Virus record (IMG/VR): IMGVR_UViG_2529292908_000005
Length of the DNA: 14,191 bases
Source of the DNA: a virus
Lineage: Duplodnaviria > Heunggongvirae > Uroviricota > Caudoviricetes
Strand: one strand, 5' to 3'
Both the position numbers and the translations under genes were made by a program. The notes under the pieces were generated by a model. The model was not told the DNA's origin. It did not search any database and saw nothing but the letters and a program-made list of their open reading frames with translations. Positions 1-14,191 of the stretch are shown one piece after another. The first letter of the stretch is position 1; each line of letters opens with the position of its first letter.

Positions 1-1578
1 ACCAGCATCATGCTCAAGGTACCAGGGGGCTCTTCCTGTTTCCTTGGTCAGTTTCATTGCCTTACCCCCGCTGGCTCCGGCATCATCCACGATTTGAGCC
101 TTGCCACCTCCGGCAGCCCAACCCTGTGGTGTCAACCGTCCTTCAGACTCAGATGCCCGGTAAGCAAATAGCGTACTCATCGTCGTGGTGTCTGCGGGTG
201 GCGTGGACGGTTTTGATGGTGTATCAGGTGACGGCTTCTCATCCGGTGGTGTCACGGTCTGCCCGCGCATCAGTTCAGCCGTGCGCCCTGCATGGAGCAT
301 AATAGCTGAGGCCAGACGGTCTGAAATGACGCCCCTGCGTGCCCATGAGCTGAAATGGCTGTCACGCTGTGTCGAAACAAAACTGCCCTGGGTTCGGGAT
401 GCTGCACCGTAATACCCGACAGCCACAATATCCGGGTCTTCCGCCGGAGCATTCGTTGGCGTGCTCTGTCCATTCTCATCCGTCAGGAACGGTACAAAGA
501 AAATTTTCTGTGCTTCCTTGCCTTTGTAGCCACCGTATACTGCCTCATATTTATCGGTGCCAGCGTTTTTCCAGTAATACGTGGTATCACCGCAAATCCA
601 CGGCACCGTGGTGGCATTTCCACTCACGCACTGCGCAGCAAGCGGAGCCAGGTCAGTTCTGAACTGCTGAACCATGGTCGTGAATAAACTATTATGCTGC
701 TGGCTTCCTGAGGCAAGGTCTGCCTCTCCCTGCATCCAGACCACAGCCAGAAGTTTGTTTTTCGGGTTTTTCGCCAGCGCGACTTTGGTGCGGCTTACCA
801 GGTCCTGATACAGAGGTTTACCGGCCCCCCAGCGTGAAGAATCAGCGGAAGCACCGCTGGCCTCACTGAATGAGCCGTCGGCTCCAGTGGTGAATGCTGA
901 CCCGCCACGACAACAGGGCACCAGAAGTATCCCGGCATTCTGTGGGATATAGGGAAGCAGTTTTTGGCAATATGCAACCCCTGACCGACAGTCCCGTACT
1001 GGCCTTTTGCCAGATCAGCTTTCGGGTGGTTTATCCCGCTCATATCCTGAACATCATGCAGGCAGTGGTCCGCCGGAATGATGTCGTTGTATGTACACGA
1101 CGTACCGTTGGGCGTTACCGTACTGCGGCGTGCCAGTTGCTTAATGCGTGGGTCCGGGCGGTCAAACGAATCCGGTAACGGCAGCCCCTCGCCGTAGGCC
1201 ATGCCATTTGACTGACCCGCGAGAATGACAACAAAGTAATATTCCGGCTCTGAACTGCTGCCATTCGTGCTACCGGAAGGCCCGGCGTTATCCGGTGCAT
1301 TCCAGTCGGAGGGCGTGAGCGTTCCGGCCACGTCAGATGTGATTGGAATGATGCCAGTCACGCCTGAACTGGTGATTTCTGCACTGGGATTACCGGATAC
1401 CGGCATTACCCATAATGGCTCTTTCGTGCTGAAGCGGATCACGCAGTCTGCGAAGGTGATCCCCCTTTATTACCCGAAGGGCGGAAGGGCTTTCAATAAA
1501 TGCCACCGTGCCACCGGCAACCTTGACTGAAAACTCTCCGGGCATGGCGGAGAGCATTTTCCACTTGGAGTCTGACAT
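1..1578 (-). pseudogene. nanS: NanS-p-like sialate 9-O-acetylesterase (SASA/SGNH domain) with extra N- and C-terminal regions; frame broken twice; 3' end runs off the window
   Basis: Minus-strand translation gives ...YYFVVILAGQSNGMAYGEGLP... (GQSN motif, ORF 795..1442) and, in the frame open from 960 to 1, ...LLPYIPQNAGILLVPCCRGGSAF...AVVWMQGEADL...GYYGA...; this matches NanS/YjhS-type esterases as recalled. N-terminal piece is ORF 1390..1578. Frame switches sit at C5 (1461-1465) and T5 (961-965). Pro/Thr-rich linker then a further domain towards position 1. Confidence 0.6.
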
Positions 1579-1663
1579 CGTCTTTTCTGCCTGTTTCTGA
1601 ATTAAACAGAGTCAGAATAGCGACCGCTGAAAAATATGTGTTTTGCGGAAATTCAAAAAAGCG

Positions 1664-2236
1664 TCACGGTACTTTTGGTGACGGAGCTGGTGAGGCAGGA
1701 AAATAACGATAAAGGGTGGAAAGGCCAATATCAAATATCAGTGCGATTTGTTTACGGGACTCGCCATTAGCCAGCAAACGGGCGATTTGCTCCCGCTCTT
1801 TCTCTGTCAGTTTCTGAGGTCTGCCGCCATGACGCCCCTGAGCACGGGCAGCAGCAAGACCCGCACGTGTACGTTCAATAATGAGTTCCCGCTCCATTTC
1901 CGCCAGCGCGCCCATTATATGGAAAAAGACACGTCCCATGGGAGTGGATGTATCAATATTGTCCGTAATGCTGCGGAAGTTAACGCCGCGTTGCCGGAGT
2001 TCTTCTGTTAAAAGGACAAGGTGCTGCATACTGCGTCCAAGGCGATCCAGTTTCCAGACCAGCAGGGTATCCCCTGGCCGGAGTCGCTTTAATGCGCGTT
2101 TAAGTCCGGGACGCTCCCTTGTCTTACCGCTTATTCTGTCTTCGAAAAACAGCTCACATCCTGCACATTCCAGCGCATTTCTTTGTAGCGCCGTATTCTG
2201 GTCATTTGTTGACACCCTGATATACCCAATCAGCAT
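1664..2236 (-). CDS. gin: Serine-recombinase DNA invertase (Gin/Pin/Hin/Cin family)
   Basis: 190-aa ORF starting MLIGYIRVSTNDQNT, with catalytic-domain pattern and C-terminal HTH ...LSTLYRYFPAS closely resembling Mu Gin as recalled; AAGGAA SD 5 nt upstream of ATG; start lies 66 bp from the left gix-like site. Confidence 0.95.
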   Translation of the reverse strand: MLIGYIRVSTNDQNTALQRNALECAGCELFFEDRISGKTRERPGLKRALKRLRPGDTLLVWKLDRLGRSMQHLVLLTEELRQRGVNFRSITDNIDTSTPMGRVFFHIMGALAEMERELIIERTRAGLAAARAQGRHGGRPQKLTEKEREQIARLLANGESRKQIALIFDIGLSTLYRYFPASPAPSPKVP

Positions 2237-2301
2237 ACGATTTCCTTATTATAAAAAGCCGGAATTGTCGCATGAGGAATAAAACAGAGTTAATCCTGGC
2301 T

Positions 2302-2327
2302 TTCCTGAAAACCTCGGTTTACGGGAA
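2302..2327. other. gix/hix-like 26-bp invertase crossover site (left)
   Basis: TTCCTGAAAACC|TCGGTTTACGGGAA: two inverted half-sites around a central dinucleotide; right half nearly identical to the Mu gix half-site TCGGTTTACAGGAA as recalled. Confidence 0.8.
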
Positions 2328-2687
2328 ACGGTAAACAGGGCGGCGAATGCTCTGCCATCGGACGGCACCGCCGTTGCCGCGAATAGACTCGCCACCCCAA
2401 GAAATATTAATGGGGTTCCCTTTGACGGGACGCAGGACATAAACATCACTTCTGGTATAACACAGCAGGATGCGGATTCCCGATATATCCAGGATATCAG
2501 GCTGGGAGCAGAGAACAGGCAGGTAATGTACGGTGGGGCATATTACTCTGCGTACGGTAATGTTATGGCAGGCCTGCAGATTGACAGTAAAGTTGATGCT
2601 TCAAAACGATTTTATAGCATTCAGACCCCTGCAAAAATTAGTCGGAGGTACATGGATTACGGTATCTCAGTTATAAATAGTCAGTAA
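2313..2687 (+). CDS. Silent alternative tail-fibre C-terminal cassette (Sv'-like); no start codon of its own
   Basis: Frame open from the left crossover site to TAA 2685-2687, encoding [48 protein letters not shown]...YMDYGISVINSQ. The first ~25 residues repeat the peptide encoded across the right site in the expressed fibre gene, so inversion would fuse this cassette to the constant fibre region. Confidence 0.7.
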   Translation, partial: LGLRETVNRAANALPSDGTAVAANRLATPRNINGVPFDGTQDINITSGITQQDADSRYIQDIRLGAENRQVMYGGAYYSAYGNVMAGLQIDSKVDASKRFYSIQTPAKISRRYMDYGISVINSQ

Positions 2688-2765
2688 ATAATATATTTTA
2701 AAACAGATTTATTTCCAGGAGGATTTTATGGAACTAAAAATATAACCCGTTATTATCCTGAAAAT

Positions 2766-3248
2766 ATGCCATATGGTAATAATGTTCAGTATTTCCAGAG
2801 TGAAGATGGTAAGGATTTCTACGAATCCCTGTCATTATTCACCAAAAAATATAAACTTTGCATAACACCTGACAGCGGCGTTATCTGCTCAATATCACAG
2901 GACGCCTCGGCGCTGTATCCTGCGGGGTTTTCTGTGGTTGAGGTCGATGAACTCCCTGAAGGCACGGATATTTCAGGAAACTGGAAGTTTGATAATGGCA
3001 TAATCTCCCGTATTCCGGTTAACTACGCAAGAAAACTGGAAGCAATGCGCCAGTCATATCTTAATCAGGCATATGAAAAAATTAATGACTGGAGAACGGA
3101 GCTACAACTGGGCACCATCAGCGATGAAGACAGAGCAGCACTTACCCAATGGATGGCATACATCAGTCAGGTGAAGAAAATGGAACTACCCGCCATTAAA
3201 ACAGAAGCTGAATTTAACGCCATTAAATGGCCTGAGCAGCCACAGTAA
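2766..3248 (+). CDS. tfa: Tail-fibre assembly protein (Tfa / Mu U-like chaperone)
   Basis: 160-aa ORF ...YFQSEDGKDFYE...ALYPAGFSVVEVDELPEG...GNWKFDNGIISR...KWPEQPQ, the characteristic Tfa pattern. ATG 2766 has no SD; a stronger start (AGGAGG + ATG 2728) lies upstream in another frame (see findings). Confidence 0.85.
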   Translation: MPYGNNVQYFQSEDGKDFYESLSLFTKKYKLCITPDSGVICSISQDASALYPAGFSVVEVDELPEGTDISGNWKFDNGIISRIPVNYARKLEAMRQSYLNQAYEKINDWRTELQLGTISDEDRAALTQWMAYISQVKKMELPAIKTEAEFNAIKWPEQPQ

Positions 3249-3251
3249 TAA

Positions 3252-3271
3252 AGAAGGCCGGAAGGCCTTCT
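3252..3271. terminator. Hairpin between convergent tfa and fibre genes (probable bidirectional terminator)
   Basis: AGAAGGCC-GGAA-GGCCTTCT: perfect 8-bp GC-rich stem with 4-nt loop, 3 nt after the tfa stop; T-rich run (TTATTACTG) on the minus-strand side. Confidence 0.5.
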
Positions 3272-3385
3272 GAATATCATTATATACTTGCAGCCGTCAC
3301 CCATGCTCCATTTAACAGATACTGCAACGGCCGGTAATACACGCCGCCGACGTTATCTGCCGTATTCTTACCGACATCCTGTACT

Positions 3386-4162
3386 TTAATTCCGGTAAGA
3401 ACATTGCCGCCCCCCCAGATTCAGATCCCAGCTTTCCCATGTTCCGGGCATATGTGCGGTCACCGACCCCAGTCTTATGGCGGTTACTGTTCCTGATGAG
3501 ATAGTGATATCCTGCGTCCCGTCAAAGGGAACACCATTAATTGTGTGGGCATTTGCCAGCCTGTTCGCGGCAACGGCGGTGCCGTCCGATGGCAGGGCAT
3601 TCGCCGCCCTGTTTACCGTTTCCCGTAAACCGACGTTATCGATAAAAGCCCCTTTATCCGGAATGTCTGCGCCGTTCTGCTCCCTGCGCAGGTAACGGTT
3701 ATCACCTTCGCTTTTGCTGTAAACATCCAGATTATTACGGGCGGTTCCCTTATTCTCCAGGTCGGCGAGATTCTGATCCTTCGCCAGGGCATTAACGTCA
3801 CCGGGACCAAGACTGTTTTTTGTGGCAAGCGTCCCCAGACCAAGATAACCACGGGCCAGACGCTGGGCCTCCGCACCGGCATCAGCAATTTCTTTCAGGT
3901 TATTTTTCCGGGAAAAGGCATTCGCAGCGATAATGGCTTTAATGGACAGCGTAAGCTGGTTTAACTGCGCCTTATCCGGCTGAATACTGGCTTCAGCCAG
4001 AATATTCAGCAGTTCGGCCTGGAGAATATTCAGCCAGTCCTGACCAATCCAGCTGATACCTTTTTGTCCGTCACCTTCGGTAAACCAGGTGGTGGTATTA
4101 CTCTGCGCCGGTGCCAGCGCAGGCATATTCGCCACGCCGGAATTATTATCAACATGAAACAT
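3386..4162 (-). CDS. Tail fibre protein (Mu S / P2 H-like): constant N-terminal part plus variable C-terminus inside the invertible segment; C-terminus probably truncated by a frameshift
   Basis: 258-aa ORF with ...[48 protein letters not shown]... crossing the right gix-like site; ATG overlaps the upstream gene stop (TAATG). A C7 tract at 3410-3416 is followed by a stop 8 codons later, while the -1 frame stays open to 3280. Confidence 0.85.
3620..3645. other. gix/hix-like 26-bp invertase crossover site (right, inverted)
   Basis: Reverse complement reads TTATCGATAACG|TCGGTTTACGGGAA; same TCGGTTTACGGGAA half-site as the left site and TTATC...AAC outer half as in Mu gix as recalled; lies inside the fibre coding sequence (encodes FIDNVGLRE). 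Confidence 0.8.
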
Positions 4163-4722
4163 TAAATAGTCTCCTCTTCATGGCTGTTTGCATACACGTA
4201 AATAAACGTCTGCCATGCAGGCTTATAACGGTTCAGAATACATTCCAGCGCACCGCCTTCATAAATACGCAGCGGCGTGAGAATATCATCCAGCACATTC
4301 ATATTCCGGTAGCCGGTTTCACTGTTAATCGTGACAATACTGACCCACTGCGAATCCGGTGAGGGCTGAATGTCAATCTGATAACCAAACTCCGCCGCAA
4401 ACCGGATATAAAATTCACGGTTCAGCGAGGGCTTCATCCGGTATTTATTTCCGGCATAACGCTGTCGCTCCGTGAGGGTGGCTCCGGCCATATCACACTC
4501 GGGAAGCCCGAGATAACGCTCCCAGTCTTCCAGCAGCAGGCGCGACGTGTCAGGGAAACGCTCGGCAAGCAGCTGTTTACCCGTCCAGGATACACGCGCT
4601 GTCGAATGACTGAGGCCCAGACATAATGATGCCAGTACGGATGACGGACGCTTGTCCCATGCCAGCCCGTCAGGCAGTAACTGCAACAGGGCGCGCTGAT
4701 GCGGGGTCAGGGTTACAGCCAT
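4162..4722 (-). CDS. Phage tail protein, DUF2313 / Mu gp48 / YmfQ-like
   Basis: 186-aa ORF in the conserved slot between baseplate J and tail fibre; start overlaps the J stop region and its stop overlaps the fibre start; composition and position match the gp48/YmfQ family as recalled. Confidence 0.75.
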
Positions 4723-5795
4723 GTGATTTCTCCTACCGTCAGCAGCTCACTGTCTCCCGCCTGAACTGACGTCAGCGGACTGCGCACTTCAAAATCCTCC
4801 AGATTTTTCACCCCTGCCACCGCCCGCCAGAAAGACGACGGCAGAACCAGACCGCCGGGCCGGGATTCGTTATACAACAGGTCGGTCAGCGCCTGTTTTA
4901 CGGCCGCCTGATTCTCCGGTGTTTTCGGGATGATCCTGATGCTGAAGGGCACCGGCTTATTGGTCAGTTTAAACACGGTCACCGTCGGCCCCAGAGGCTG
5001 TCCGACAGGCTGGCCGGTCGCCGGATCATCATGACTGCGGATATAATCCGCCACCCGCTGAACATCACCGTCACCGGGGAAAATATCCGGGTTATTATCC
5101 TGAACAAACGTTACCCCCACGCTGCCCGCCTGCGGCCATTCCGGGCGGCACCATGCCCGCGTCACGCCCGGCACTTCACGCGCCCAGCGTTCAAAATCAT
5201 ACTGCGTGCCGCCGGACGGTGGATTCTGCACCCGGAAAACCAGACGGGAAAGCAGCTCCGGCACGGTTTCCACATCCGCACCACCGGTGATCCCCGTTCC
5301 GGTCACCGTGGACGTCTGGTTGATCCCCGCCTGCGGTGTGATAAATGTCAGTTTTGTCCCTGCCGGGGCATTCCCCGCACGACCGGCACTTTCGGCTTCC
5401 ACACTGACATTCAGCGTACCGGCCTTACCGGTCAGGGAGGTGGTGATACGGTAAACCACGCCATCACTTCGCTGGAGAAGCACACCTTCCTTGATCCCCG
5501 CATCCGTGGTCAGCATCAGCTGAACCGGCCCGTCCCCCCGAGAGGCAGGCTTACGCATGACGCCCCAGAATGCACAGTGTTTCAGCAGTTCGGCTTCATC
5601 GGCTTCGGTCGGGATGATCTGACGCGCAATCCAGGCCAGATGCTCATGCTCCTGAGCAGATAACCCTGCCTGAGCGTAAGCAATGGCATTCAGGGTGGTT
5701 TCATTCACACCCGGCTGCGAGCCGGGCAGGCGCTGGCTGATATCCTGCTGTGTCTGCGTGATTAACTGTGCCAGCGGTAAAGGCTGATAAGGCAT
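4713..5795 (-). CDS. Baseplate J-like protein (Mu gp47 / P2 gpJ family)
   Basis: ORF-track frame 4713..5837 starts at TTG; a better start is ATG 5793-5795 (MPYQPLPLAQ...) with a GGG-containing SD. Translation shows the J-family layout (...ADEAELLKH.AFWGV.RK.A..A.G...GGADVE...) recalled from P2 J. Confidence 0.85.
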   Translation of the reverse strand: MPYQPLPLAQLITQTQQDISQRLPGSQPGVNETTLNAIAYAQAGLSAQEHEHLAWIARQIIPTEADEAELLKHCAFWGVMRKPASRGDGPVQLMLTTDAGIKEGVLLQRSDGVVYRITTSLTGKAGTLNVSVEAESAGRAGNAPAGTKLTFITPQAGINQTSTVTGTGITGGADVETVPELLSRLVFRVQNPPSGGTQYDFERWAREVPGVTRAWCRPEWPQAGSVGVTFVQDNNPDIFPGDGDVQRVADYIRSHDDPATGQPVGQPLGPTVTVFKLTNKPVPFSIRIIPKTPENQAAVKQALTDLLYNESRPGGLVLPSSFWRAVAGVKNLEDFEVRSPLTSVQAGDSELLTVGEITWL

Positions 5796-5954
5796 TAACC
5801 CTGTTCGATAAGGGGCTGATTTCCCGTGAGGAGGCAATACATATTATCAATCTCGCTCAAAAAAACTCTACCCCGGAAAATGCAGAAGATATCCAGGATG
5901 GCTCATATATTAATACCGACTGGCATTTCGACAATCTCCGGGCCTGTATGGGGA

Positions 5955-6242
5955 TTACCGCTGAAAAAGATTAAAAATTTTTGCATAATGTTCAGATGTA
6001 AGAATTGCTGAACCATCAACACCGAGCCTGCGGCGAACGTATTCCTCGCGGGCTATTTTATTATCCAGAGATACAGCATCCTTAATCAGGTTAATCTCCC
6101 GCTCCATTATCAAAAGGGCTTCTCTGGCTGCAAGATTTTCTTTTATCGCATATTCGATAATGTCCCGCATACGTTCAAGCATGCCGATTTTAGCCAGTTC
6201 TTCGTCGATAGATTTAGGCGCAAATTTGATTTCTTTTTCCAT
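5955..6242 (-). CDS. Hypothetical protein, predicted all-helical, encoded in AT-rich DNA
   Basis: ORF-track 5955..6257 (GTG start); preferred start ATG 6240-6242 (MEKEIKF...) with GAGGA SD 8 nt upstream, 1 nt after the stop of the upstream zinc-ribbon ORF; markedly lower GC than neighbours. Confidence 0.5.
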   Translation of the reverse strand: MEKEIKFAPKSIDEELAKIGMLERMRDIIEYAIKENLAAREALLIMEREINLIKDAVSLDNKIAREEYVRRRLGVDGSAILTSEHYAKIFNLFQR

Positions 6243-6243
6243 A

Positions 6244-6387
6244 TTATTCATCCTCACAATTTATACATGCAGTGTCGTCGCCCATATCGCAGTGGTTACA
6301 TTTTATCTCACCACAATGTGGGCACTCTTTCAGATACTCCGGGTCCTCATTTCCACAGGTGGGACATTCAACAATTTGCTCATCCAT
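6244..6387 (-). CDS. Small 4xCxxC zinc-ribbon protein (47 aa), not in the ORF track
   Basis: ATG 6385-6387 to TAA 6244-6246 translates MDEQIVECPTCGNEDPEYLKECPHCGEIKCNHCDMGDDTACINCEDE: four CxxC pairs in 47 residues; AGGGGA SD 7 nt upstream; start overlaps the stop of ORF 6380..6712 (ATGGATGA). Confidence 0.5.
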   Translation of the reverse strand: MDEQIVECPTCGNEDPEYLKECPHCGEIKCNHCDMGDDTACINCEDE

Positions 6388-6712
6388 TATGTATCCCCTG
6401 TAATTCCGGCAAGGCCGAAAGATGGCACCAGTGCGTCACCTGTCCGTCCTCATCTTCAAGGCAGGCTCCGGTTTCTTCATCAATAAAAAAGCCTTCATAC
6501 CCCATATGGCCGATGCGCAGTTCCTGTTGGTCACCATACTGAACAATCAGCACGACAGCCTCCATATCAGGCGGAAATGCGTCATCCAGTGAATGCCAGG
6601 GATAACCGCGCAAATCCCCGAAATAAACGCCGGTCAGCGTTCCGCCACAGAGCGGCATTCCGGCGGCACACACAAGAGGTTCATCTGATTCAACAAATAA
6701 GGTCGTTATCAT
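6380..6712 (-). CDS. Hypothetical protein (110 aa)
   Basis: ORF with ATGA start/stop overlap to the upstream gene at 6709-6712; acidic C-terminal half; no family recognised. Confidence 0.55.
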   Translation of the reverse strand: MITTLFVESDEPLVCAAGMPLCGGTLTGVYFGDLRGYPWHSLDDAFPPDMEAVVLIVQYGDQQELRIGHMGYEGFFIDEETGACLEDEDGQVTHWCHLSALPELQGIHNG

Positions 6713-7260
6713 GGCGTTAACTCCCGTAATACAGCGTCCTCGGCAGTCCGGCGACGGTAATAAACTGCGTGAGCAGAATGTTCAGATATTCCAAACTTTT
6801 CGCCAATTTCCCGGAATGACAGACGGCGTGGGTAATCGGAATCACGCAGCGCACGTATAAGACGTACATCATCATCAGATATGCGCGTGCCGGGGCGTAA
6901 CTCTCCGCACTTTGTTAATCCAGCACCAATCATTCCTGCCCGACATCTGACAGAATCTTTATTACGTCCGAGATATTCTCCCATTTGCTGGCAGGTCATT
7001 GTTCTGGCATTTTTTCGAATAAACTTATCTTCATCAGGTGTAAATCTTGGGTGTTTATATTTCAGTAACTCCGGGTATGAACTGCGCAATACACCAGTCC
7101 GGTTATATACAGCCCAGACAGTTCTTTTTATTCTGGCAGCAATATCCTTAACCGGGGTGGATGAATAAAGCGCAATCAGTAGCGCATCTTCTTCAGGTGT
7201 CCACGCGCGGACATGAGCGGGTGTACGACCTTTTCGCCCCATGGGTTGTAATTTCATCAT
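6709..7260 (-). CDS. Putative DNA-binding protein with tandem Myb/SANT-like HTH repeats
   Basis: 183 aa; repeats ...RAWTPEEDALLIALYS...IAARIKRTVWAVYNRTGVL and ...RFTPDEDKFIRKNARTMTCQQMGEYLGRNKDSVRCRA, plus a third weaker HTH-like segment; strong AGGGGGTGA SD; start 3 nt after the upstream stop. Confidence 0.6.
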   Translation of the reverse strand: MMKLQPMGRKGRTPAHVRAWTPEEDALLIALYSSTPVKDIAARIKRTVWAVYNRTGVLRSSYPELLKYKHPRFTPDEDKFIRKNARTMTCQQMGEYLGRNKDSVRCRAGMIGAGLTKCGELRPGTRISDDDVRLIRALRDSDYPRRLSFREIGEKFGISEHSAHAVYYRRRTAEDAVLRELTP

Positions 7261-7263
7261 GCA

Positions 7264-7779
7264 TCACCCCCTGACTCGCTTTTCAGCAGCATAAAACTCA
7301 TCAGACAGTATTTCGGTCATTTTCTGTTTTGCGGGTTTTACGCCGCACTGAAGGTAAATCACATCGTCAACGCAGAACCACTTCACAGGGCCAAACAGGA
7401 TTGCCGAGAAATCAATACCCAGCCAGAACAACAGCGCATCGGTTCTGGCATACGTGACGGGTGAATATTCACGCCACAGACTGTTCAGTTCATCAGAGGC
7501 AACACGCAGGGTTTTAGGGATACGTGATGTGCGCGGTGTGCAGCTCCAGCCATTCGACGCAGTCGGTTTTCGCCATAAGTCGCGATGAAAAGGATATTTG
7601 TCCTCCGTAAAACGCAGTCCCTTAAAGCAAAATCCACTGATACCGGATACAAATACCGACCGGCACGCAACATTCAGCACGGCCTCAAGGCGTTTTGCCT
7701 CATCCTTAACTTTCTGGCAGTCCTGCTGGTATTTTTGCCACGCAGCCAGCGCGGAAGGGTTTGATGTTTTAAAGAACAT
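7264..7779 (-). CDS. Hypothetical early-region protein (171 aa)
   Basis: ORF whose ATG shares a nucleotide with the upstream stop (TAATG at 7777-7781); no family recognised. Confidence 0.55.
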   Translation of the reverse strand: MFFKTSNPSALAAWQKYQQDCQKVKDEAKRLEAVLNVACRSVFVSGISGFCFKGLRFTEDKYPFHRDLWRKPTASNGWSCTPRTSRIPKTLRVASDELNSLWREYSPVTYARTDALLFWLGIDFSAILFGPVKWFCVDDVIYLQCGVKPAKQKMTEILSDEFYAAEKRVRG

Positions 7780-8312
7780 TACGCCACCTCCGCAGATATC
7801 CCGGCAGGCGCTGCTGTCCGGTCAACAATCAGGTAGCGCAGAACATGTTCAGTGATATTCCAGCCGCTTAAACCGCAGATAATGACGCCCAGGCGTATGT
7901 CGATATACGCCATCACAAACTGGGGCACGCCTTCTTTCATGGCCTGCTCATCAACTTCAGCCACCACATAAACGGTTTCACAGGTCAGAACGCCCTGAGC
8001 AAATTCCCACGCCATCGACGGAATATCATGCCCCTCAATCCATGGCAGGGATTTTCTGAAGCCGCACCACTGAACATCATCAGCCGCAGATTCCTGGCTG
8101 CATTTGCGACGAACCGGCTGCACCGGGCGGGGGCGCGGAATATCATAAAAACCGTTACATTCCGTCAGCACGCCTGCATCAACCGCATCACGCAGAAAAT
8201 AAACCATGGAGGATGGCGGCATATTCATTTTTTCAGCCAGTACACCGCAGGTCAGGCGGCCATAAATACGCAGCCAGTTTTTAACCCCTTCAAGCACTTT
8301 TGCATCAATCAT
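7779..8312 (-). CDS. Hypothetical early-region protein (177 aa)
   Basis: ORF with GGGGAAA SD 7 nt upstream of ATG 8310-8312; first gene after the 145-bp AT-rich gap downstream of gam; no family recognised. Confidence 0.55.
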   Translation of the reverse strand: MIDAKVLEGVKNWLRIYGRLTCGVLAEKMNMPPSSMVYFLRDAVDAGVLTECNGFYDIPRPRPVQPVRRKCSQESAADDVQWCGFRKSLPWIEGHDIPSMAWEFAQGVLTCETVYVVAEVDEQAMKEGVPQFVMAYIDIRLGVIICGLSGWNITEHVLRYLIVDRTAAPAGISAEVA

Positions 8313-8457
8313 GATTTATTTCCCCACCACATTATTAATGACGATATAAACGTATTTCATATTTCTTAACCCTTATTTTCTGTTTTCAGGCGCAAGCAGT
8401 CCCCTGACGCGAGCGCCATAATTAAAATGAAGTGATATTTAATTGATTAATGCGGTG

Positions 8458-8988
8458 TTATTTATTCAGTCCGGCGTCCTGTTCAAAAGGCTCGACATAA
8501 AAACTTTCAGCGCCTTTATTCACCTTGATACCGGCAATGCCTTTCACAGCATCCGGCTCCGCCAGGACGGCTTCCTTGTTCACTTCCTCTTTCGTGCGGA
8601 TGAAACGCTCAAGCCCCATACGGCGCAGCATTTCAATCACACCTTCCACATCACGGCTGACGCTGCATGATGGCGTTCCCAGCCGCCATGACACCGTTCC
8701 GGTGGTCAGATTGGCTGTTTTGGTTTTGCCGCCGTTCGTCAGCTCATCACGGTTGGTTTTGCACCAGTCCTGAATCCCTTTAAAAAGCACTTTGATTTGC
8801 TTTTTAAGATTTTCAATCTGCGGCGTATAACGGGCGGTGATTTCTGCCACTTCGTCATTCATCGCCGTTTCCAGGCGCAGCGCCTCTCGCTGAATATCTC
8901 CCAGGGTGCGGATATCACGGCTGACTTCTTCCCGGGTCTGCGGTGCCGCCTCGGCTGCGGCCTTTAATTTTGTAACGCGTTTAGCCAT
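8458..8988 (-). CDS. gam: Gam-like host-nuclease inhibitor (Mu Gam family, DNA-end binding)
   Basis: 176-aa ORF MAK...DIRTLGDIQREALRLETAMNDEVAEI...DWCKTNRDELTNGGKTKTANLTTGTVSWR...ERFIRTKEEVNKEAVL...EPFEQDAG, co-linear with Mu Gam as recalled; AGGA SD. Confidence 0.9.
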   Translation of the reverse strand: MAKRVTKLKAAAEAAPQTREEVSRDIRTLGDIQREALRLETAMNDEVAEITARYTPQIENLKKQIKVLFKGIQDWCKTNRDELTNGGKTKTANLTTGTVSWRLGTPSCSVSRDVEGVIEMLRRMGLERFIRTKEEVNKEAVLAEPDAVKGIAGIKVNKGAESFYVEPFEQDAGLNK

Positions 8989-8999
8989 TTTGTTTTTCC

Positions 9000-9293
9000 T
9001 TATTGCAGTGTGCCTGATGCTTTATGCACGCGGTGGCGTTTAATGATGGCATCCGCTCCAAAAGACTGTGCAGATGCCTGAAATTCCGCTGAGAGAAACT
9101 GAATAATTGCAGGACTGTGATACTGGAGAATACTTGCATAAACGTCACAGAGTGACGTCGGCCTGTTATCCGTATCACGTTCTGTTTTTACATCCACACC
9201 AATCTTTTCATGCACTTCAACACTGTCATTGCCTGCCGGTTTTTCGTCATGCGAAACATGCTCAAATTCAAAAATAACGCGTACTTTGCTCAT
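9000..9293 (-). CDS. Hypothetical small early protein (paralogue 1 of a tandem pair)
   Basis: ORF-track 9000..9320; preferred start ATG 9291-9293 (MSKVRVIFEFEHV...) with GGGG SD, 4 nt after the upstream gene stop; N-terminus parallels the upstream gene (MSKVVRIIFEYKE...). Confidence 0.55.
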   Translation of the reverse strand: MSKVRVIFEFEHVSHDEKPAGNDSVEVHEKIGVDVKTERDTDNRPTSLCDVYASILQYHSPAIIQFLSAEFQASAQSFGADAIIKRHRVHKASGTLQ

Positions 9294-9297
9294 GGAA

Positions 9298-9570
9298 TTA
9301 CCCCTGCTGATTAAATTCATTACCGTTAATAACCCCGGAAGCCATGCCTCTGTCTTTCATGAATGCACTGGCTTTCATTGCCACAAACTCTGCGAAGTTT
9401 CTGCTTTCTGCCAGCATAACCACCCCAAAAATCATGGCGGGTCCATTATCTTTCTTCTTTATTCCGGTTGAACGTATATCCAGACTTACCCCTCTGTGCG
9501 TGCTGCCATCAGAGTTTTTGCAGATAACATCTTCCTTGTATTCGAAAATAATGCGTACGACTTTACTCAT
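9298..9570 (-). CDS. Hypothetical small early protein (paralogue 2 of a tandem pair)
   Basis: 90-aa ORF MSKVVRIIFEYKEDV...; 4-nt start/stop overlap with the upstream gene. Confidence 0.55.
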   Translation of the reverse strand: MSKVVRIIFEYKEDVICKNSDGSTHRGVSLDIRSTGIKKKDNGPAMIFGVVMLAESRNFAEFVAMKASAFMKDRGMASGVINGNEFNQQG

Positions 9571-9848
9571 CCTCTGGTCCTCGTTCTGTTTGGATAACTG
9601 ACCCGGCGTCTAACCTCACGGCAGAACCGAATCATGGCATTAAAGGCTTCTTCCTCCGTCACCGCTTCCGGTATCCCAGGAACCAGTAGCTGTTCCTGTT
9701 CATCGCGTCCATGACGCGCCATAACCTCAATCACATGCCGTACCGTGGCAGGCTTTCCGGCAACTATCGGCAATGCACCTTCCGGCAGGACGTAACCAAA
9801 CTCAATAAGACCACTCGACCACGCCCATGCAATGAGATTTCGTTTCAC
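9567..9848 (-). CDS. Hypothetical small early protein (93 aa)
   Basis: ORF packed between neighbours in the B-to-gam interval; no family recognised. Confidence 0.5.
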   Translation of the reverse strand: MKRNLIAWAWSSGLIEFGYVLPEGALPIVAGKPATVRHVIEVMARHGRDEQEQLLVPGIPEAVTEEEAFNAMIRFCREVRRRVSYPNRTRTRG

Positions 9849-9849
9849 C

Positions 9850-10116
9850 TCACACCTCCCAGTAAACCGTGCAGCCGCTGATGCGGGTGGCCTTCACACG
9901 GCGGCGCAGGCCGTTGGTCTGTATGGTGATTTCAATTTCACCGGTTCCCTGCACGTTGCCTACCGGCGGCGTGGTTTTCAGTGCAAAACGTTGCGGATAG
10001 CGCTTACTGCGTTCCAGTACCGCACCGGCAAGTTCGGTCAGACGGCGCGCGCTGTTCAGGGAGTCGAATAAATTCATTTTGTTACCGCAGGATTGCATAT
10101 TCATATAACACCTCAT
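9850..10116 (-). CDS. Hypothetical small early protein (start ambiguous: ATG at 10116, 10104, 10098 or 10077)
   Basis: ORF directly following the upstream stop (TAA ATG); several in-frame ATGs, GAGGTG SD-like element before 10104/10098; sits where kil-type genes lie in Mu, but no sequence recognition. Confidence 0.45.
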   Translation of the reverse strand: MRCYMNMQSCGNKMNLFDSLNSARRLTELAGAVLERSKRYPQRFALKTTPPVGNVQGTGEIEITIQTNGLRRRVKATRISGCTVYWEV

Positions 10117-10338
10117 TTAGCTGACTTGTTTCGCACCAACAGAACGGCATATTCCGCTGTAAACTTCTGTCGCACCTTCGCGATCAAGTCCGGCAGATAT
10201 CACCATTCGTGTGCGGTCATTAAATTCAAAAAGTAAATCGCCACATTCTTTATTTTCGGCCAGTGAAATCACCTTCACGTTATCGAAATTAACCAGGTAA
10301 AAGCGTCCGTAAATATCAGGAATATTAAATACCGCCAT
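10117..10338 (-). CDS. Hypothetical small early protein (73 aa)
   Basis: ORF-track 10117..10344 (GTG); ATG 10336-10338 with AGGTG SD 5 nt upstream is preferred; begins 2 nt after the B stop. Confidence 0.5.
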   Translation of the reverse strand: MAVFNIPDIYGRFYLVNFDNVKVISLAENKECGDLLFEFNDRTRMVISAGLDREGATEVYSGICRSVGAKQVS

Positions 10339-10340
10339 AA

Positions 10341-11273
10341 TCACACCTGTGAGAGTAATTCAGGGTTGGTATAAACCTCTTTAAAGGCCGCATTAATATG
10401 TTTTTCTGTCAGCGCCGCGCCTTCACCGCTGGCGGTGAGCCACGCCTGGTTAAGCGTATGTGTCAGAACGCGTAACGCTCCCGGCTTTTCAGCGATAGCC
10501 TGCATGACGGCCAGCTCGGCCTCACCACTGATACCCCATGCCCTGGCAATGGCCAGCACATCCGCCTTTTTGGCCTTGCGAAGTTGTTTTGTACGGGCAA
10601 GACGGCTGAACAGGCGCGATAAATCATCAAAGGCGCGGCGTCCACCTTTAAACAATCCGCGCGGGTTACCAATAAGCACCATCCCGATCCCCGTGGCGTC
10701 CTGAATTGCCCGGAGTTGCTCCAGACCGTCAATACCAAGATGATCCGCCTCATCCACAATCACCAGTCCACGCGTTCCCGTCAGGCGACGGCGGATGGCG
10801 CGGGATAATGCCCCTTTGTTCGCGCGGGTGTAATCAATCCCCAGCGCATCGGCCAGCTCCAGCAGACACTCCGTGACGCTGGAGTGCGCGGGTGACAGGG
10901 TGATCATCCAGGTGTTTGGTTGCTCCTGGCAGTAATTACGGGCAGTGGCCGTTTTACCCACACCCGGTACGCCCACAATAACGTTAATACAGCCCATCAG
11001 GCGAACCGCCTGAAACAGTGCGCGCAGCTCCTGGACTGTCTGAGTTTCCACAAACTGCGGCGGTTCCGGCAGTGCGCTTTGTTTATTCCAGTTCTCATAC
11101 CAGGAGCGCAGGGAAGCAGCCACAGCGGCGTTATCGCCTTTATATTTCCCCTTGCGGAAAGCCGATAATGTGCCGTCGGAAATTCCCGCCTCTCTGGCGA
11201 TGGCATACTGCGTCAGCACGCCGCCATCAATAAGTTCATCAATGGTCTTGATTACATCGTTTATATCGGTCAT
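10341..11273 (-). CDS. B: MuB-like transposition target-capture protein (AAA+ ATPase)
   Basis: 310-aa ORF with Walker A VGVPGVGKTATARNY, ...LVIVDEADHLG..., N-terminal HTH-like region, and co-linearity with Mu B as recalled (...GDN..V...L..W...PEPP.FVETQTV...KPGALR.L...); GAGG SD; directly downstream of the transposase. Confidence 0.92.
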   Translation of the reverse strand: MTDINDVIKTIDELIDGGVLTQYAIAREAGISDGTLSAFRKGKYKGDNAAVAASLRSWYENWNKQSALPEPPQFVETQTVQELRALFQAVRLMGCINVIVGVPGVGKTATARNYCQEQPNTWMITLSPAHSSVTECLLELADALGIDYTRANKGALSRAIRRRLTGTRGLVIVDEADHLGIDGLEQLRAIQDATGIGMVLIGNPRGLFKGGRRAFDDLSRLFSRLARTKQLRKAKKADVLAIARAWGISGEAELAVMQAIAEKPGALRVLTHTLNQAWLTASGEGAALTEKHINAAFKEVYTNPELLSQV

Positions 11274-11312
11274 ATTATTACCTCGCGTTTGTGTAGTTCC
11301 TTTGTTTAATCA

Positions 11313-11348
11313 AATAACCTGAGTCGCCGCTCGGGTTATTTTTTATTT
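11313..11348 (+). terminator. Stem-loop plus T-tract in the A-B intergenic region; reads as an intrinsic terminator on the strand antisense to A/B
   Basis: AATAACCTGAG-TCGCCG-CTCGGGTTATT (11-bp stem with one G-U pair on the plus-strand RNA) followed by TTTTATTT; on the sense (minus) strand the stem has a C-A mismatch and a weaker U-tract. Confidence 0.35.
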
Positions 11349-13438
11349 CAGGCCAGAGGGTCATTTTCTTTTAATTTCGCTTCAAGCAGCTGCAATCCCC
11401 GCTGGAAATTACGCTCGTATTCTTCATCAGGTTCATCGTCAGCGACCGGTTGCTGAACGATCACCGTATTACCCACAGGGCGGTATATATTTTCCAGCCA
11501 CGGCTCCTGTGGCTTGTGCTCCAGCACGTTGACAATCTCATCCTCGGCATCACGGATTTTTTCCTCTGCGCGTTTACGCATGCCTTTAAGGCGCTGCTGC
11601 TGTTTGTGGTATTCCGCGCTGACCGGGAAGGCTTCGCGTTTATTGCCGTCCCATACCGCCTCGCAAATCACGCTGCCATCCGGGCGACGTACGGTAATTC
11701 GTTCGGCATCATGAATGTCATAGCTGATAAGCACCTTACGACCATGCTCGTCACGCAGCTCGGGCGCGTAGTAAATATTATTCAGCCAGCGTATTTCACA
11801 GCGTCTTACAGGGCGTTCCACCATCGGCCGGAACATATCCCGCAGCTCAACATCGGACAGCCATTCAATTTCCGTGTCCTCTTCCGCCAGGCGTTTTTTT
11901 CTGAACTCCGCCGGGCTGTAATGCTTGCCGTTCGGCTTCACCGGTAATTCATCGTGCGGCCGGTTGTTGTACCACTCAACACCATCACGAATGGCATCAA
12001 TCAGTTCAGCCCAGGACGGTAAATCACGCATCGCTGACTGCTGCCGGGCGTTCAGCCGTTTGCCCTGTTGCAGGGCAGTAAATGCCGAGCGTAAATCGCG
12101 GTTGGTTTTGCGTAACGTCTCGCGATCTGCACCTTTCCCGAAATAGGTGCGGTATTTACGGGCTATGCGCATCGGTAATGTGCGGTTAAGCCGTTCGATA
12201 ATGCCTCGTCCCTGCGGATTACCGGCAATCCCGGTCGGGTGATTAATCCCCAGTCGCGGCAGTATCCCCACAACCTCCTTATCCAGGATGTCGGCGGTTT
12301 CCCCGGAGCCGTTATCCGAGTAATACAGAAACGGTTTGCCGTGATGGCGAATGCCGTGCTGTATGGCACCGGCTACGGCGAAAACATTTTCAGCCAGGTC
12401 AAGGCTCCAGCCCACCACAAAGCGCGTGCCACCGTCGATAACAAAGGTCACTTCCGGTGCAAATGGCCGACCGTGAACCGGGTGTGCGCATTTCAGCTTC
12501 ATGCCGTGACCGTCACCAATCCAGACATAATTCACCGGCATTTTTGACCAGTCGCGGCGCGTGAATCCCTCAAGCTGGCGGTATTCACTGCCGGTCACCC
12601 GGCCTTTTTGTTTCACCACTTCCGGCAGTTTCTTCATTGCGCGGCGAATGGTGTCATAAGACGGCATGATATCGAGCATATAAGGCTCATCAGCGTGCCG
12701 GTGCTGCCATTCAGCAACAAAATCCTCGTAAGCCTCGGTCATTGGTCGGCCGTTTGACTGGCGATACTGCGCCAGAAATTCGGGCAGCCAGTTAATATCT
12801 TCGGCTTTTATTTCCTGGCGCTTACCCGGTGCCAGTAAAAGCAGGCGTTCAGCGGCGTTCTGCGCCTTGTTAAAGGCCGCAATCCAGCGTTTCAGCGTGA
12901 TTTCACTTAACGCGCGGCTGTTTCCCTTTTTGGCGTTCGCCGTCTCAACCATTGCCACAATGCGCTCGTCCAGCTGCGAACGTGCCAGGTTGTCAACGAT
13001 AAACCGGATAGCCTTCGCACAGCTGAAACCAGGTTGTTGCGCGACTTTCAGCACCTCGCTGACGATCGCGATTCGTGCATCAGCCACCTGGCGCTGGTTT
13101 TCAGTCAGGGCATTAAGGCGTTCAACCATCAGTTGTGGTGATCCGCGATATGCCTCCACCGCATCAACCACGGCAGGCGAGCGTCTGGCCTTTGTCACCA
13201 CTGGAGCCGGTGATTCATCGACTTTTTGAGTCATCAGTTGCAGGGCGTAGCGTTCACGTAATGCCTGCTGCGTCACTTCAGGTAAACAGTCGATGCTGTA
13301 TTCAGTTGCTTTAGAGCCTGAGCGACGACGGGAACAACAGCTTTTCCCTTGTACGTAACGTTGTAATGCCTGGCGAATACCTTTTGTTGTAGCAGGCATT
13401 CCGGGCGCGCCAATCAGTTCTTTTGCAATGACATACAT
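11348..13438 (-). CDS. A: Mu-type DDE transposase (MuA-like)
   Basis: 696-aa ORF of MuA size, immediately between ner-like and B-like genes; start 1 nt after the ner stop (TGATATG); internal ...YVWIGDGHGMKLKC... core region. Assignment rests mainly on size and conserved ner-A-B synteny. Confidence 0.9.
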   Translation of the reverse strand: MYVIAKELIGAPGMPATTKGIRQALQRYVQGKSCCSRRRSGSKATEYSIDCLPEVTQQALRERYALQLMTQKVDESPAPVVTKARRSPAVVDAVEAYRGSPQLMVERLNALTENQRQVADARIAIVSEVLKVAQQPGFSCAKAIRFIVDNLARSQLDERIVAMVETANAKKGNSRALSEITLKRWIAAFNKAQNAAERLLLLAPGKRQEIKAEDINWLPEFLAQYRQSNGRPMTEAYEDFVAEWQHRHADEPYMLDIMPSYDTIRRAMKKLPEVVKQKGRVTGSEYRQLEGFTRRDWSKMPVNYVWIGDGHGMKLKCAHPVHGRPFAPEVTFVIDGGTRFVVGWSLDLAENVFAVAGAIQHGIRHHGKPFLYYSDNGSGETADILDKEVVGILPRLGINHPTGIAGNPQGRGIIERLNRTLPMRIARKYRTYFGKGADRETLRKTNRDLRSAFTALQQGKRLNARQQSAMRDLPSWAELIDAIRDGVEWYNNRPHDELPVKPNGKHYSPAEFRKKRLAEEDTEIEWLSDVELRDMFRPMVERPVRRCEIRWLNNIYYAPELRDEHGRKVLISYDIHDAERITVRRPDGSVICEAVWDGNKREAFPVSAEYHKQQQRLKGMRKRAEEKIRDAEDEIVNVLEHKPQEPWLENIYRPVGNTVIVQQPVADDEPDEEYERNFQRGLQLLEAKLKENDPLA

Positions 13439-13439
13439 A

Positions 13440-13688
13440 TCATGACGCCTTTCTCATATAGCTCTTAACCTGGTATCGACTGGGCCAGATTTCTTCAGGC
13501 GATACCCCAAGAGCATCAGCAATTATTTGCTGATACGGTCGGCAAGGAGTACGTAATACGCTTTTCAGCGAATCCCTGCTGTAACCAGCCTTTAAAGATA
13601 AAGAGCGCAGTGATAAGCCAGCCATGTGTAAGCGCGCCTTGATGATTTCAGGCGGCCAATCGTGATCTGAAACTTCTCTTCTACTCAT
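13440..13688 (-). CDS. ner: Ner-like DNA-binding regulator (Ner/Nlp family)
   Basis: 82-aa ORF ...DWPPEIIKARL...GLSLRSLSLKAGYSRDSL...QQIIADALGVSPEEIWPSRY..., co-linear with Mu Ner / E. coli Nlp as recalled; first gene of the early operon, divergent from the repressor. Confidence 0.88.
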   Translation of the reverse strand: MSRREVSDHDWPPEIIKARLHMAGLSLRSLSLKAGYSRDSLKSVLRTPCRPYQQIIADALGVSPEEIWPSRYQVKSYMRKAS

Positions 13689-13855
13689 ACTTCCTCTATT
13701 CTAAAAAGTTACCCGCGCGGATATTCGTGCGGATATCTGTACGGGTAAATAATAGAACAAGCAAAAGAACCAAATCAAGGTATTTTGTTCTTTTTATTCT
13801 TTGCGGTGTTTTTGTTATTAATATCAATAAGATAAATAAAAAGGAACCTGAGAGC
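13689..13855. promoter_or_regulatory. Divergent early promoter/operator region between ner and the repressor gene
   Basis: 167-bp AT-rich intergenic region. Direct repeats GCGGATAT at 13717-13724 and 13729-13736 nested in inverted arms TTACCCG (13709-13715) / CGGGTAA (13742-13748). Candidate leftward promoter: -35 TTGATT (13773-13778) and -10 TATTAT (13749-13754), 18-bp spacer. AAGGAA SD for the repressor at 13841-13846. Confidence 0.5.
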
Positions 13856-14191
13856 ATGAACATGAAAAACAGTTCTTTTCTCGACGAAGGAAAAGAACCA
13901 GTGATCGAACGGATTTTTCGTCTTGCAGAGCGTTACAAATCGAGAAGTGAGGCGGCTAGAGCATGGGGAATAAACGTTCAGACATTGCAGAACTACTACA
14001 AAAGGAGAAACAATCAGCCGCCACCACAACCAAGAAAGCACCATCTCCAGAACATTGCAGAAAGAGAACATGTATCTATGGAGTGGCTGGTCAATGGTTA
14101 TGGTGATGAGCCAAGCATGAAAAAAGAACCAATTGAACAAACAAAAAGAACAAAAAACAAAGAATTGATGATAGTGATTCCATCATCATGA
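13856..14191 (+). CDS. Prophage repressor, CI-type HTH (Phage_CI_repr-like); ends at the window edge
   Basis: ORF-track frame 13727..14191; preferred start ATG 13856 (MNMKNSS...) with AAGGAA SD 9 nt upstream; HTH segment ...SRSEAARAWGINVQTLQNYYK... and the ...VSMEWLVNGYG motif typical of CI-type repressor N-domains; divergent from ner-A-B. Confidence 0.7.
   Translation: MNMKNSSFLDEGKEPVIERIFRLAERYKSRSEAARAWGINVQTLQNYYKRRNNQPPPQPRKHHLQNIAEREHVSMEWLVNGYGDEPSMKKEPIEQTKRTKNKELMIVIPSS

Follow-up and report, generated by a model that had tools for sequence, protein, structure and literature searches.

How does the early operon of a Mu-like phage come to run straight into the genes for its distal tail fibres? 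The question is raised by a 14,191-nt stretch of Caudoviricetes DNA (IMG/VR record IMGVR_UViG_2529292908_000005; the whole stretch is called the window below), in which an initial annotation, made from the letters alone, had read a repressor gene, then ner-A-B, small genes and gam, and directly behind them baseplate J, gp48, a fibre gene, an invertible switch and gin. Pfam and PHROG profile matches, on which our identification of the window genes is based (E-values are given below in brackets), together with protein comparisons to phage Mu (NC_000929), confirmed this order, with almost all genes lying on the minus strand. Its sequence matches positions 1–14191 of contig AIFX01000029.1 (assembly GCA_000249635.2) without a difference, the contig ending at window position 1. 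We consider it very probable that the window represents most of a defective Mu-like transposable prophage belonging to the E. coli Sp18 family, which inserted in kefC, lost about 21 kb in one illegitimate-recombination event and has been inherited vertically.

A complete copy of this element, 17,533 bp long, inserted in kefC and with both ends intact, is present in assembly L006 (361–17893), where it is 99.87% identical to the window. The window holds 14.2 kb of this 17.5-kb element; the right-end genes and the right end itself lie beyond the contig end, and in L006 this part comprises the remainder of an esterase-like gene, DUF1378 and DUF826 genes, a small open reading frame (ORF) and com/mom. 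The window had at first been taken for the whole element, which does not hold: its right end lies outside, the repressor is cut, and the first 1,578 nt belong to the esterase-like gene rather than to the switch. The related proposal, of a prophage reduced to its early operon and fibre switch, stands in part, in that the late region is gone, but right-end cargo and com/mom have also been kept.

The junction and the lost late region

A three-way alignment placed the junction at the dinucleotide TA at 5796–5797, which is common to both parental sequences. On the J side the window aligns with the prophage of strain TOE17 up to position 5797 (the J ATG and the overlapping gp46 stop), and on the early side it aligns with the full-length prophage of DETEC-S792 from position 5796 on; the microhomology between the parents at the breakpoint is only these 2 bp. 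The junction falls 2–3 nt upstream of the J ATG. In the parental arrangement, as seen in TOE17, J begins with a TAATG overlap with the gp46 stop and a GGAG upstream; the sequence upstream of J is new here. The early-side breakpoint lies 61 nt into an antisense small ORF at the position of Mu gp15, the first 61 nt of which were deleted; its 3' remnant (5796–5974, plus strand) aligns to L003 20001–20179, within the 240-nt coding sequence of WP_001280088.1 (19940–20179).

The interval between the two breakpoints in DETEC-S792 spans 20,981 bp and 27 genes, in agreement with the earlier estimate that roughly 20 kb of middle and late genes were missing. Judged by DETEC-S792, the lost genes for regulation and lysis are a gp16/GemA-like gene, a Mor-family activator, lysozyme, spanins and a TraR-like gene; those for the head are the terminase subunits, portal, head morphogenesis genes, protease and major head protein; and those for the tail and baseplate are the sheath, tube, tape measure, a DNA-circularization protein, baseplate P and V, and gp46. 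Neither the window nor the whole L006 element contains a mor, lysis, head, sheath, tube, tape-measure or hub gene. Nor do such genes lie in the flanks, where they might have been expected had the window been only a fragment of an intact phage; the flanking genes are kefC, kefF and yaaU, with no morphogenetic genes among them. The corresponding points of Mu, gp15 and the end of gp46, are ~21.7 kb apart. Against Sp18, the alignment on the J side starts exactly at the first base of J (locus 30831), while on the early side DNA similarity stops at locus position 9078 and is followed by non-matching small early genes up to the gp16-type gene at 10098; the missing late region corresponds approximately to ECs_4960 to ECs_4986 of Sp18.

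An exact 61-mer across the junction was present in five other independent assemblies (L006, L009, L012, L013 and L014, all of them ENA/Logan assemblies retrieved by exact look-up of the J protein). The junction was found in 0 of 5,426 complete E. coli genomes, and in none of the GTDB representative genomes and JGI metagenome contigs, the deletion lineage being recorded in one draft genome and in ENA/Logan assemblies only. The copy of the junction in L013 has 16 differing positions in 2.3 kb.

The proposed history is that a full-length prophage of ~38.5 kb would have lost ~21 kb in a single event. Because both breakpoints are internal to the element, no insertion sequence (IS) is left at the junction and the overlap is 2 bp, a single illegitimate recombination is the simplest origin, and we infer that it took place in situ at kefC.

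Several short-read contigs stop at informative places. Those of L010, L011 and L015 end at window position 5797; at the repeats of the invertible segment, contigs of L009, L012 and L015 end at 3604 and one of L011 starts at 2314. Such stops are as expected if the samples also contain a full-length relative, or both orientations of the segment.

Insertion in kefC and the ends of the element

In L006 the K-12 kefC sequence continues on both sides of the element, with a target duplication; L007 and L009 share its left kefC boundary and L010 its right one. We infer from this that the element has been inherited vertically in one E. coli lineage. The 1,863-nt kefC gene is interrupted ~410 nt in (L006 1–360 and 17894–18308; K-12 48180–48184), and the carrier lineage should be without the KefC potassium-efflux system.

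The ends are well conserved within the family, the left 176 bp being 99.4% and the right 1.1 kb 94.7% identical to those of Sp18. The octamer TTTGATAC occurs six times in the 17.5 kb, at the ends only: in forward orientation at element positions 18, 113 and 165, and in reverse at 17452, 17487 and 17509 (L006 378–540 and 17812–17876). These repeats are putative transposase-binding sites, three per end, in a layout that recalls L1 and L2–L3, and R1–R3, of Mu.

The base after ...GCGCTAT is an A in six independent family insertions (L006, L001, L004, L019, which is Sp18, L020, and L003/L005), while its counterpart in the left flank varies, and this terminal A is absent from the target sequence in the uninterrupted bglJ of K-12. 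As the A is constant in all six and does not belong to the bglJ target, the termini of the family are 5'-TGTAAC...GCGCTATA-3', i.e., TG...TA, and the target duplication is 4 bp (GTAT, GTAC, GATT, TAAA, GATA and TGGA). A 5-bp duplication (AGATT) had been considered for this element and was rejected, given that the six insertions and the uninterrupted target yield 4 bp. Members of the family lie at unrelated sites (kefC, rhsD, citD/E, bglJ, hofC, sorM and a hydratase gene), and a duplication flanks each one examined. The 4-bp duplication and the TA-3' right terminus are unlike those of Mu, which has a 5-bp duplication and a CA-3' terminus, and are the most unexpected point of this work, one that concerns the family rather than the deletion.

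What the element has kept

The initial annotation had called A and B intact, and this was borne out. Transposase A (11348–13438, minus strand; 696 aa) is full length, with matches to Mu-transpos_C (2.2e-17) and HTH_Tnp_Mu_1 (6.9e-6); it has the same length as in full-length relatives, from which it differs by 6–17 aa. Its core aligns to retroviral integrase catalytic cores, and candidate DDE residues are D309 (IGDGH), D375 (SDNGS) and E415 (IERLN). It is only 22% identical to MuA over 746 aligned positions. The adjoining gene encodes a full-length MuB-type AAA+ transposition ATPase (10341–11273, minus strand; 310 aa; Phage-MuB_C, 2.5e-25; AAA_22, 2.9e-18) that is 48% identical to MuB and, at equal length, shows 2–3 aa differences from its relatives. 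Upstream lies a ner-like early regulator (13440–13688, minus strand; HTH_35, 2.5e-19; 43% identical to Mu Ner) and, divergent from ner-A-B, the first 333 of 585 nt of a c-type immunity repressor gene (13859–14191, plus strand; phrog_3037, 3.9e-32), which is cut by the window end and encodes 194 aa at full length in L006 and DETEC-S792. From its position, the region between the two (13689–13858) is presumed to hold the operator, early promoter and transposition enhancer, comparable to Mu 864–1098. Repressor length and annotation vary among otherwise close relatives (531, 546, 585 and 612 nt in L001–L004), and the left-end search string was not found in TOE17; together these suggest that immunity regions are mosaic in the family.

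Behind B follow 12 small early genes, all on the minus strand and identified mainly by PHROG matches. Those immediately after B are a small gene (10117–10338; phrog_3375), a kil-like gene (9850–10104; PF26843 Kil_protein on the L006 copy) and three further small genes (9567–9848, 9298–9570 and 9000–9293), the matches for the five small genes in 8989–10338 ranging from 1e-39 to 1e-55. They are followed by the host-nuclease inhibitor gene gam (8458–8988; Phage_Mu_Gam, 5.5e-42; 57% identical to Mu Gam), by homologs of Mu gp11 (7779–8312; 69% identity) and gp12 (7264–7779; 54%), by a SANT/Myb-like gene (6709–7260) and a phrog_6925 gene (6380–6712), and by homologs of gp13 (6244–6387; 88%) and gp14 (5955–6242; 49%). 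Between gam and the gp11-like gene (8320–8343) the window does not contain a gene of ~540 nt that is present in Sp18, TOE17 and DETEC-S792; this gene is also absent from JMF1 and DLI.5a, and in 2018-166 the same slot is filled by a DUF5420 gene, making it a variable position of the early operon.

On the other side of the junction, baseplate J, the homolog of Mu gp47, is intact (4713–5795, minus strand; 360 aa; Baseplate_J, 3.6e-62; 53% identical to Mu gp47), and is followed on the same strand by a gp48/YmfQ-type baseplate wedge protein gene (4162–4722; Phage_Mu_Gp48, 7.5e-22; 50% identical to Mu gp48) and by the tail fibre gene S (3386–4162), in which a constant part and an in-frame variable part together encode 258 aa (47% identical to Mu S over 198 aa). 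A frameshift in a C7 tract (3410–3416) shortens the fibre, which with C6 would have 293 aa and end near 3281; the tract, which is possibly slippage-prone, is C7 in the window, L006, L010 and L011 and C6 in JMF1, TOE17 and DLI.5a.

The variable part of the fibre lies in an invertible segment of ~1.3 kb (2316–3631), bounded by inverted repeats of ~150 nt (2307–2455 and 3492–3640; 86 nt at 93% and 50 nt at 84%) and by two gix-like crossover sites, in inverted orientation within the fibre gene, that lie at the outer ends of these repeats. Site A, TTCCTGAAAACCTCGGTTTACGGGAA (2302–2327, plus strand), is the only exact match to AAACCNNGGTTT in the window, and site B is TTATCGATAACGTCGGTTTACGGGAA (3620–3645, minus strand); of 26 positions, 21 in site A and 22 in site B agree with Mu gix (TTATCCAAAACCTCGGTTTACAGGAA), and both have a central TC. 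DLI.5a carries the stretch corresponding to window 2298–3650 in the opposite orientation at 99.0% identity, and therefore the segment inverts in the Sp18-type family. In the deletion lineage all four assemblies that cover it show one orientation, a number too small to interpret. Inversion in silico would join the constant part to an alternative fibre C-terminus, Sv' (2316–2676, plus strand; annotated in JMF1 as an N-terminally incomplete 'phage tail protein'), giving a fibre of approximately 300 aa with the tail-fibre assembly gene then downstream on the same strand. In the orientation present here that gene (2728–3248, plus strand; Caudo_TAP, 3.6e-19; 33% identical to Mu U') converges with the fibre gene, with a GC-rich, terminator-like palindrome found by sequence scan between their ends (3252–3271), the first of its kind on the minus strand behind the early genes in the stretch scanned (3200–7000).

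The invertase itself is a full-length serine recombinase of the Gin/Pin type (1664–2236, minus strand; 190 aa; Resolvase, 3.3e-51; HTH_7; 73% identical to Gin), whose N-terminus MLIGYIRVSTNDQ aligns with that of Gin, VLIGYVRVSTNDQ, and contains the catalytic serine motif. An intact invertase, a full pair of gix-like sites and the inverted segment of a 99%-identical relative make it plausible that the fibre can still be switched. Its one private substitution is F103V (codon at 1928–1930; MGRFFFH to MGRVFFH), the Phe being common to L006, JMF1 and Mu Gin. Fis-independent Gin and Hin mutants map around this codon, but a sequencing error is just as possible.

Between the invertase and com/mom lie a SASA/DUF6645 esterase-like gene of 684 aa and DUF1378 and DUF826 genes (window 1–1578; L006 13485–16156). 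The window contains the first three quarters of the esterase-like gene (1–1578, minus strand), cut by the contig end; it is annotated as DUF6645 in JMF1, TOE17 and DLI.5a, and its L006 copy matches PF03629 SASA and PF20350. Positions 724–1250 match lambdoid-type Escherichia phages at 74–76% identity, and the region looks like cargo from another type of phage. Rfam and tRNA scans of the window gave no matches.

Relatives, competing readings and possible behaviour

The closest characterized system is Sp18 of E. coli O157:H7 Sakai, whose relatives include Phi804-3 of FRIK804 and the DETEC-S792 prophage. Sp18 has the same gene order, an invertible fibre region and right-end cargo genes, and it has complete the ~21 kb that the element is without. 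Identity to Sp18 is 95.3% from ner-A-B to gam, 88.4% from the gp11-like to the SANT/Myb-like gene, 87.8% over J-gp48-fibre and ~69% for the invertase and esterase-like genes; the small genes at 5796–6702 match DETEC-S792, to which the element is 97–98.5% identical, but at the DNA level nothing in Sp18. Sp18 has been judged an intact Mu-like prophage (PMC2669165), and full-length members of the family are 38.8–39.2 kb long, with strain-specific insertion sites (PMC7430833). The family occurs in about 230 of the 5,426 complete E. coli genomes; in most of these, either side of each tested junction lies at a place of its own, as expected for full-length copies.

Mu has the same architecture (c, divergent from ner A B kil ... 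gam gp11–gp14 ... gp47 gp48 S U / U' S' gin com mom), nearly identical gix sites and, matching the putative sites here in number, three repeats per end. Its invertible segment is 3 kb with U and U' and 34-bp repeats, compared with 1.3 kb, a single assembly gene and 150-nt repeats here; the element also has the extra cargo between invertase and com, and is without the whole region from mor to gp46. Based on the low identity to MuA and the different termini and target duplication, the element is a transposable Mu-like prophage but not Mu proper (Muvirus).

The suggestion that the element mirrors e14 of K-12 held for the architecture of the module only. e14 is also internally deleted and keeps jayE, ymfQ, stfP, tfaP, tfaE, stfE and pinE together with early and regulatory genes, and there is homology between J and JayE (31% identity), gp48 and YmfQ (28%), and the two invertases (72% to PinE); the fibre and assembly proteins of e14 gave no significant match to those of the element, and its J gene, jayE, is a pseudogene, whereas J is intact here. 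The early halves are unrelated, e14 being lambdoid, with an integrase and a fixed att site in icd, whereas the element is transposase-based.

Four other late-region deletion derivatives of the family were found in complete genomes: JMF1 (in rhsD), TOE17 (citD/citE), DLI.5a (bglJ) and 2018-166 (hofC). In all four, A, B, the ends, the fibre switch and com/mom survive, and the right part of three of them is 99.1–99.7% identical to window 1–2440 or further; none has the window junction. Their breakpoints all differ, with IS903B at the junction in JMF1, IS1A in 2018-166, where it abuts the antisense small ORF that is cut in the window, and direct joins in TOE17 and DLI.5a. The family thus loses its late region recurrently, by sporadic decay. 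Our literature search found no description of the element in kefC, nor of naturally deleted Sp18-type prophages.

The behaviour open to such an element can be outlined. The repressor would keep the early operon silent; upon derepression A and B could drive transposition from the intact ends, and with A, B, both ends, the control region and ner intact, the sequence is consistent with transposition after derepression still being possible. A late programme, lysis and particles are ruled out, because the Mor-family activator, the lysis genes and all head and tail-shaft genes were lost. J-gp48-fibre now stands behind the early operon in the same direction and would be read through from the early promoter; no terminator-like site was predicted on the minus strand from 7000 to 4857, the first lying inside J. 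The invertase would flip the 1.3-kb segment independently of the early operon.

Several observations weigh against a history of insertion, one deletion and vertical inheritance, or against an element that still works. No full-length parent prophage at kefC was found among the 5,426 complete genomes. All copies of the deletion with visible flanks occupy one kefC position, with no sign of movement after the deletion, and the deletion spans the position of the central gyrase site of Mu (annotated at Mu 17,879). In Mu this site promotes efficient synapsis of the distant ends, and the one-site distribution and the loss of the gyrase site count against efficient movement. The C7 frameshift that shortens the fibre is real and lineage-wide. 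In addition, single-base indels in the window appear to break the esterase-like gene (960, 1460 and 1484), the assembly gene (2735) and the repressor (14151).

These indels belong to a set of seven single-base differences in homopolymer length that are private to the window assembly (960, 1460, 1484, 2603, 2735, 11338 and 14151). None of the seven occurs in L006; JMF1 was compared over window 1–4102, and the five that fall there are missing from it as well. Thus, in the repressor, an A6/A7 difference at 14151 produces a stop at 14189–14191, and in the assembly gene, which encodes 173 aa in relatives, an A5/A6 indel at 2735 makes the window ORF start at 2766 (160 aa). Sequencing error is their probable cause; since no other assembly has them and the source is a draft, we read them in this way and rejected decay as the explanation of the frameshifts in the three genes. 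None of the evidence contradicts the structural conclusion, and the functional claims are plausible as far as the sequence goes.

Of the competing readings, the one with most left to it makes the element a natural mini-Mu. In its boldest form this would be autonomous, with J-gp48-fibre rewired to the early promoter, and would be packaged headful by Sp18-type phages along with ~20 kb of chromosome, acting as a transducing vehicle and a donor of fibre genes; we regard this as improbable. Slightly less probable still is that it is under element-level selection, transposing by itself and being packaged and spread by full-length Sp18-type helpers, which would account for A, B, the ends and the left-end region having been preserved when the morphogenetic genes could be dispensed with. 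The intact A, B, ends and control region favour such a role, as does the retention of A, B and both ends by every one of five late-region deletion derivatives that arose independently in the family. TOE17 and 2018-166 have further late-region matches at other chromosomal places that could represent a second, potential helper prophage, and the 16 differences in the L013 copy indicate that the deletion lineage is not brand new. Engineered mini-Mu elements are laboratory deletion derivatives that keep the ends of Mu, with or without A and B; common to them and the present element is that both ends, repressor, ner, A and B persist where the morphogenetic genes are gone, and once derepressed such constructs transpose, their packaging depending on a helper. 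The element, in contrast, is of natural origin and 17.5 kb long, and has in addition its semi-essential early genes, three baseplate/fibre genes, invertase and com/mom; with every flanked copy at one site, it shows no evidence of movement. The derivatives argue against selection as well: their deletion endpoints vary widely and an IS simply accounts for two of the deletions, the junctions of TOE17 and DLI.5a are each singletons among the 5,426 genomes, which lends no support to mobile mini-Mu derivatives, and the ~230 family-carrying genomes mostly have the two sides of each tested junction apart. Their common retention of both blocks is also subject to ascertainment, since the search query held both surviving blocks and derivatives keeping both therefore ranked first. 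The element is another defective Mu-like prophage that resembles mini-Mu, a product of ordinary prophage decay.

It is very unlikely that the deletion arose by an IS- or transposase-mediated rearrangement instead of illegitimate recombination at the level of microhomology. The precedents are the IS903B and IS1A copies exactly at the junctions of JMF1 and 2018-166, and Mu-type transposition is known to generate deletions; yet there is no IS sequence or IS end at 5796–5797, where the parents run uninterrupted to the common TA, and transposase-mediated deletions begin at an end of the element, and the two breakpoints lie inside it. We give almost no credence to a chimeric join or collapsed contig in a strain that really has a full-length prophage, which the many homopolymer-length errors of the draft source, its contig ending within the element and the missing record in complete, GTDB and JGI sequences might have favoured, and we rejected it because the five assemblies with the exact 61-mer come from different samples and pipelines, L006 covers the entire element from kefC to kefC, and a 2-bp overlap is too short for a graph-based misjoin.

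Insertion in kefC followed by a single internal deletion thus remains our reading, and it provides a clean, documented case in which a 38.5-kb transposable phage became a 17.5-kb element through one deletion at a 2-bp microhomology. The element keeps its transposition machinery and a host-range switch, with no lysis and no particles, and its insertion inactivates kefC in the carrier lineage. Seen beside its four sister derivatives, it shows that loss of the late region recurs in the Sp18-type family, and if it were true that the element moves or is packaged by a helper, the laboratory mini-Mu would have an equivalent in nature.

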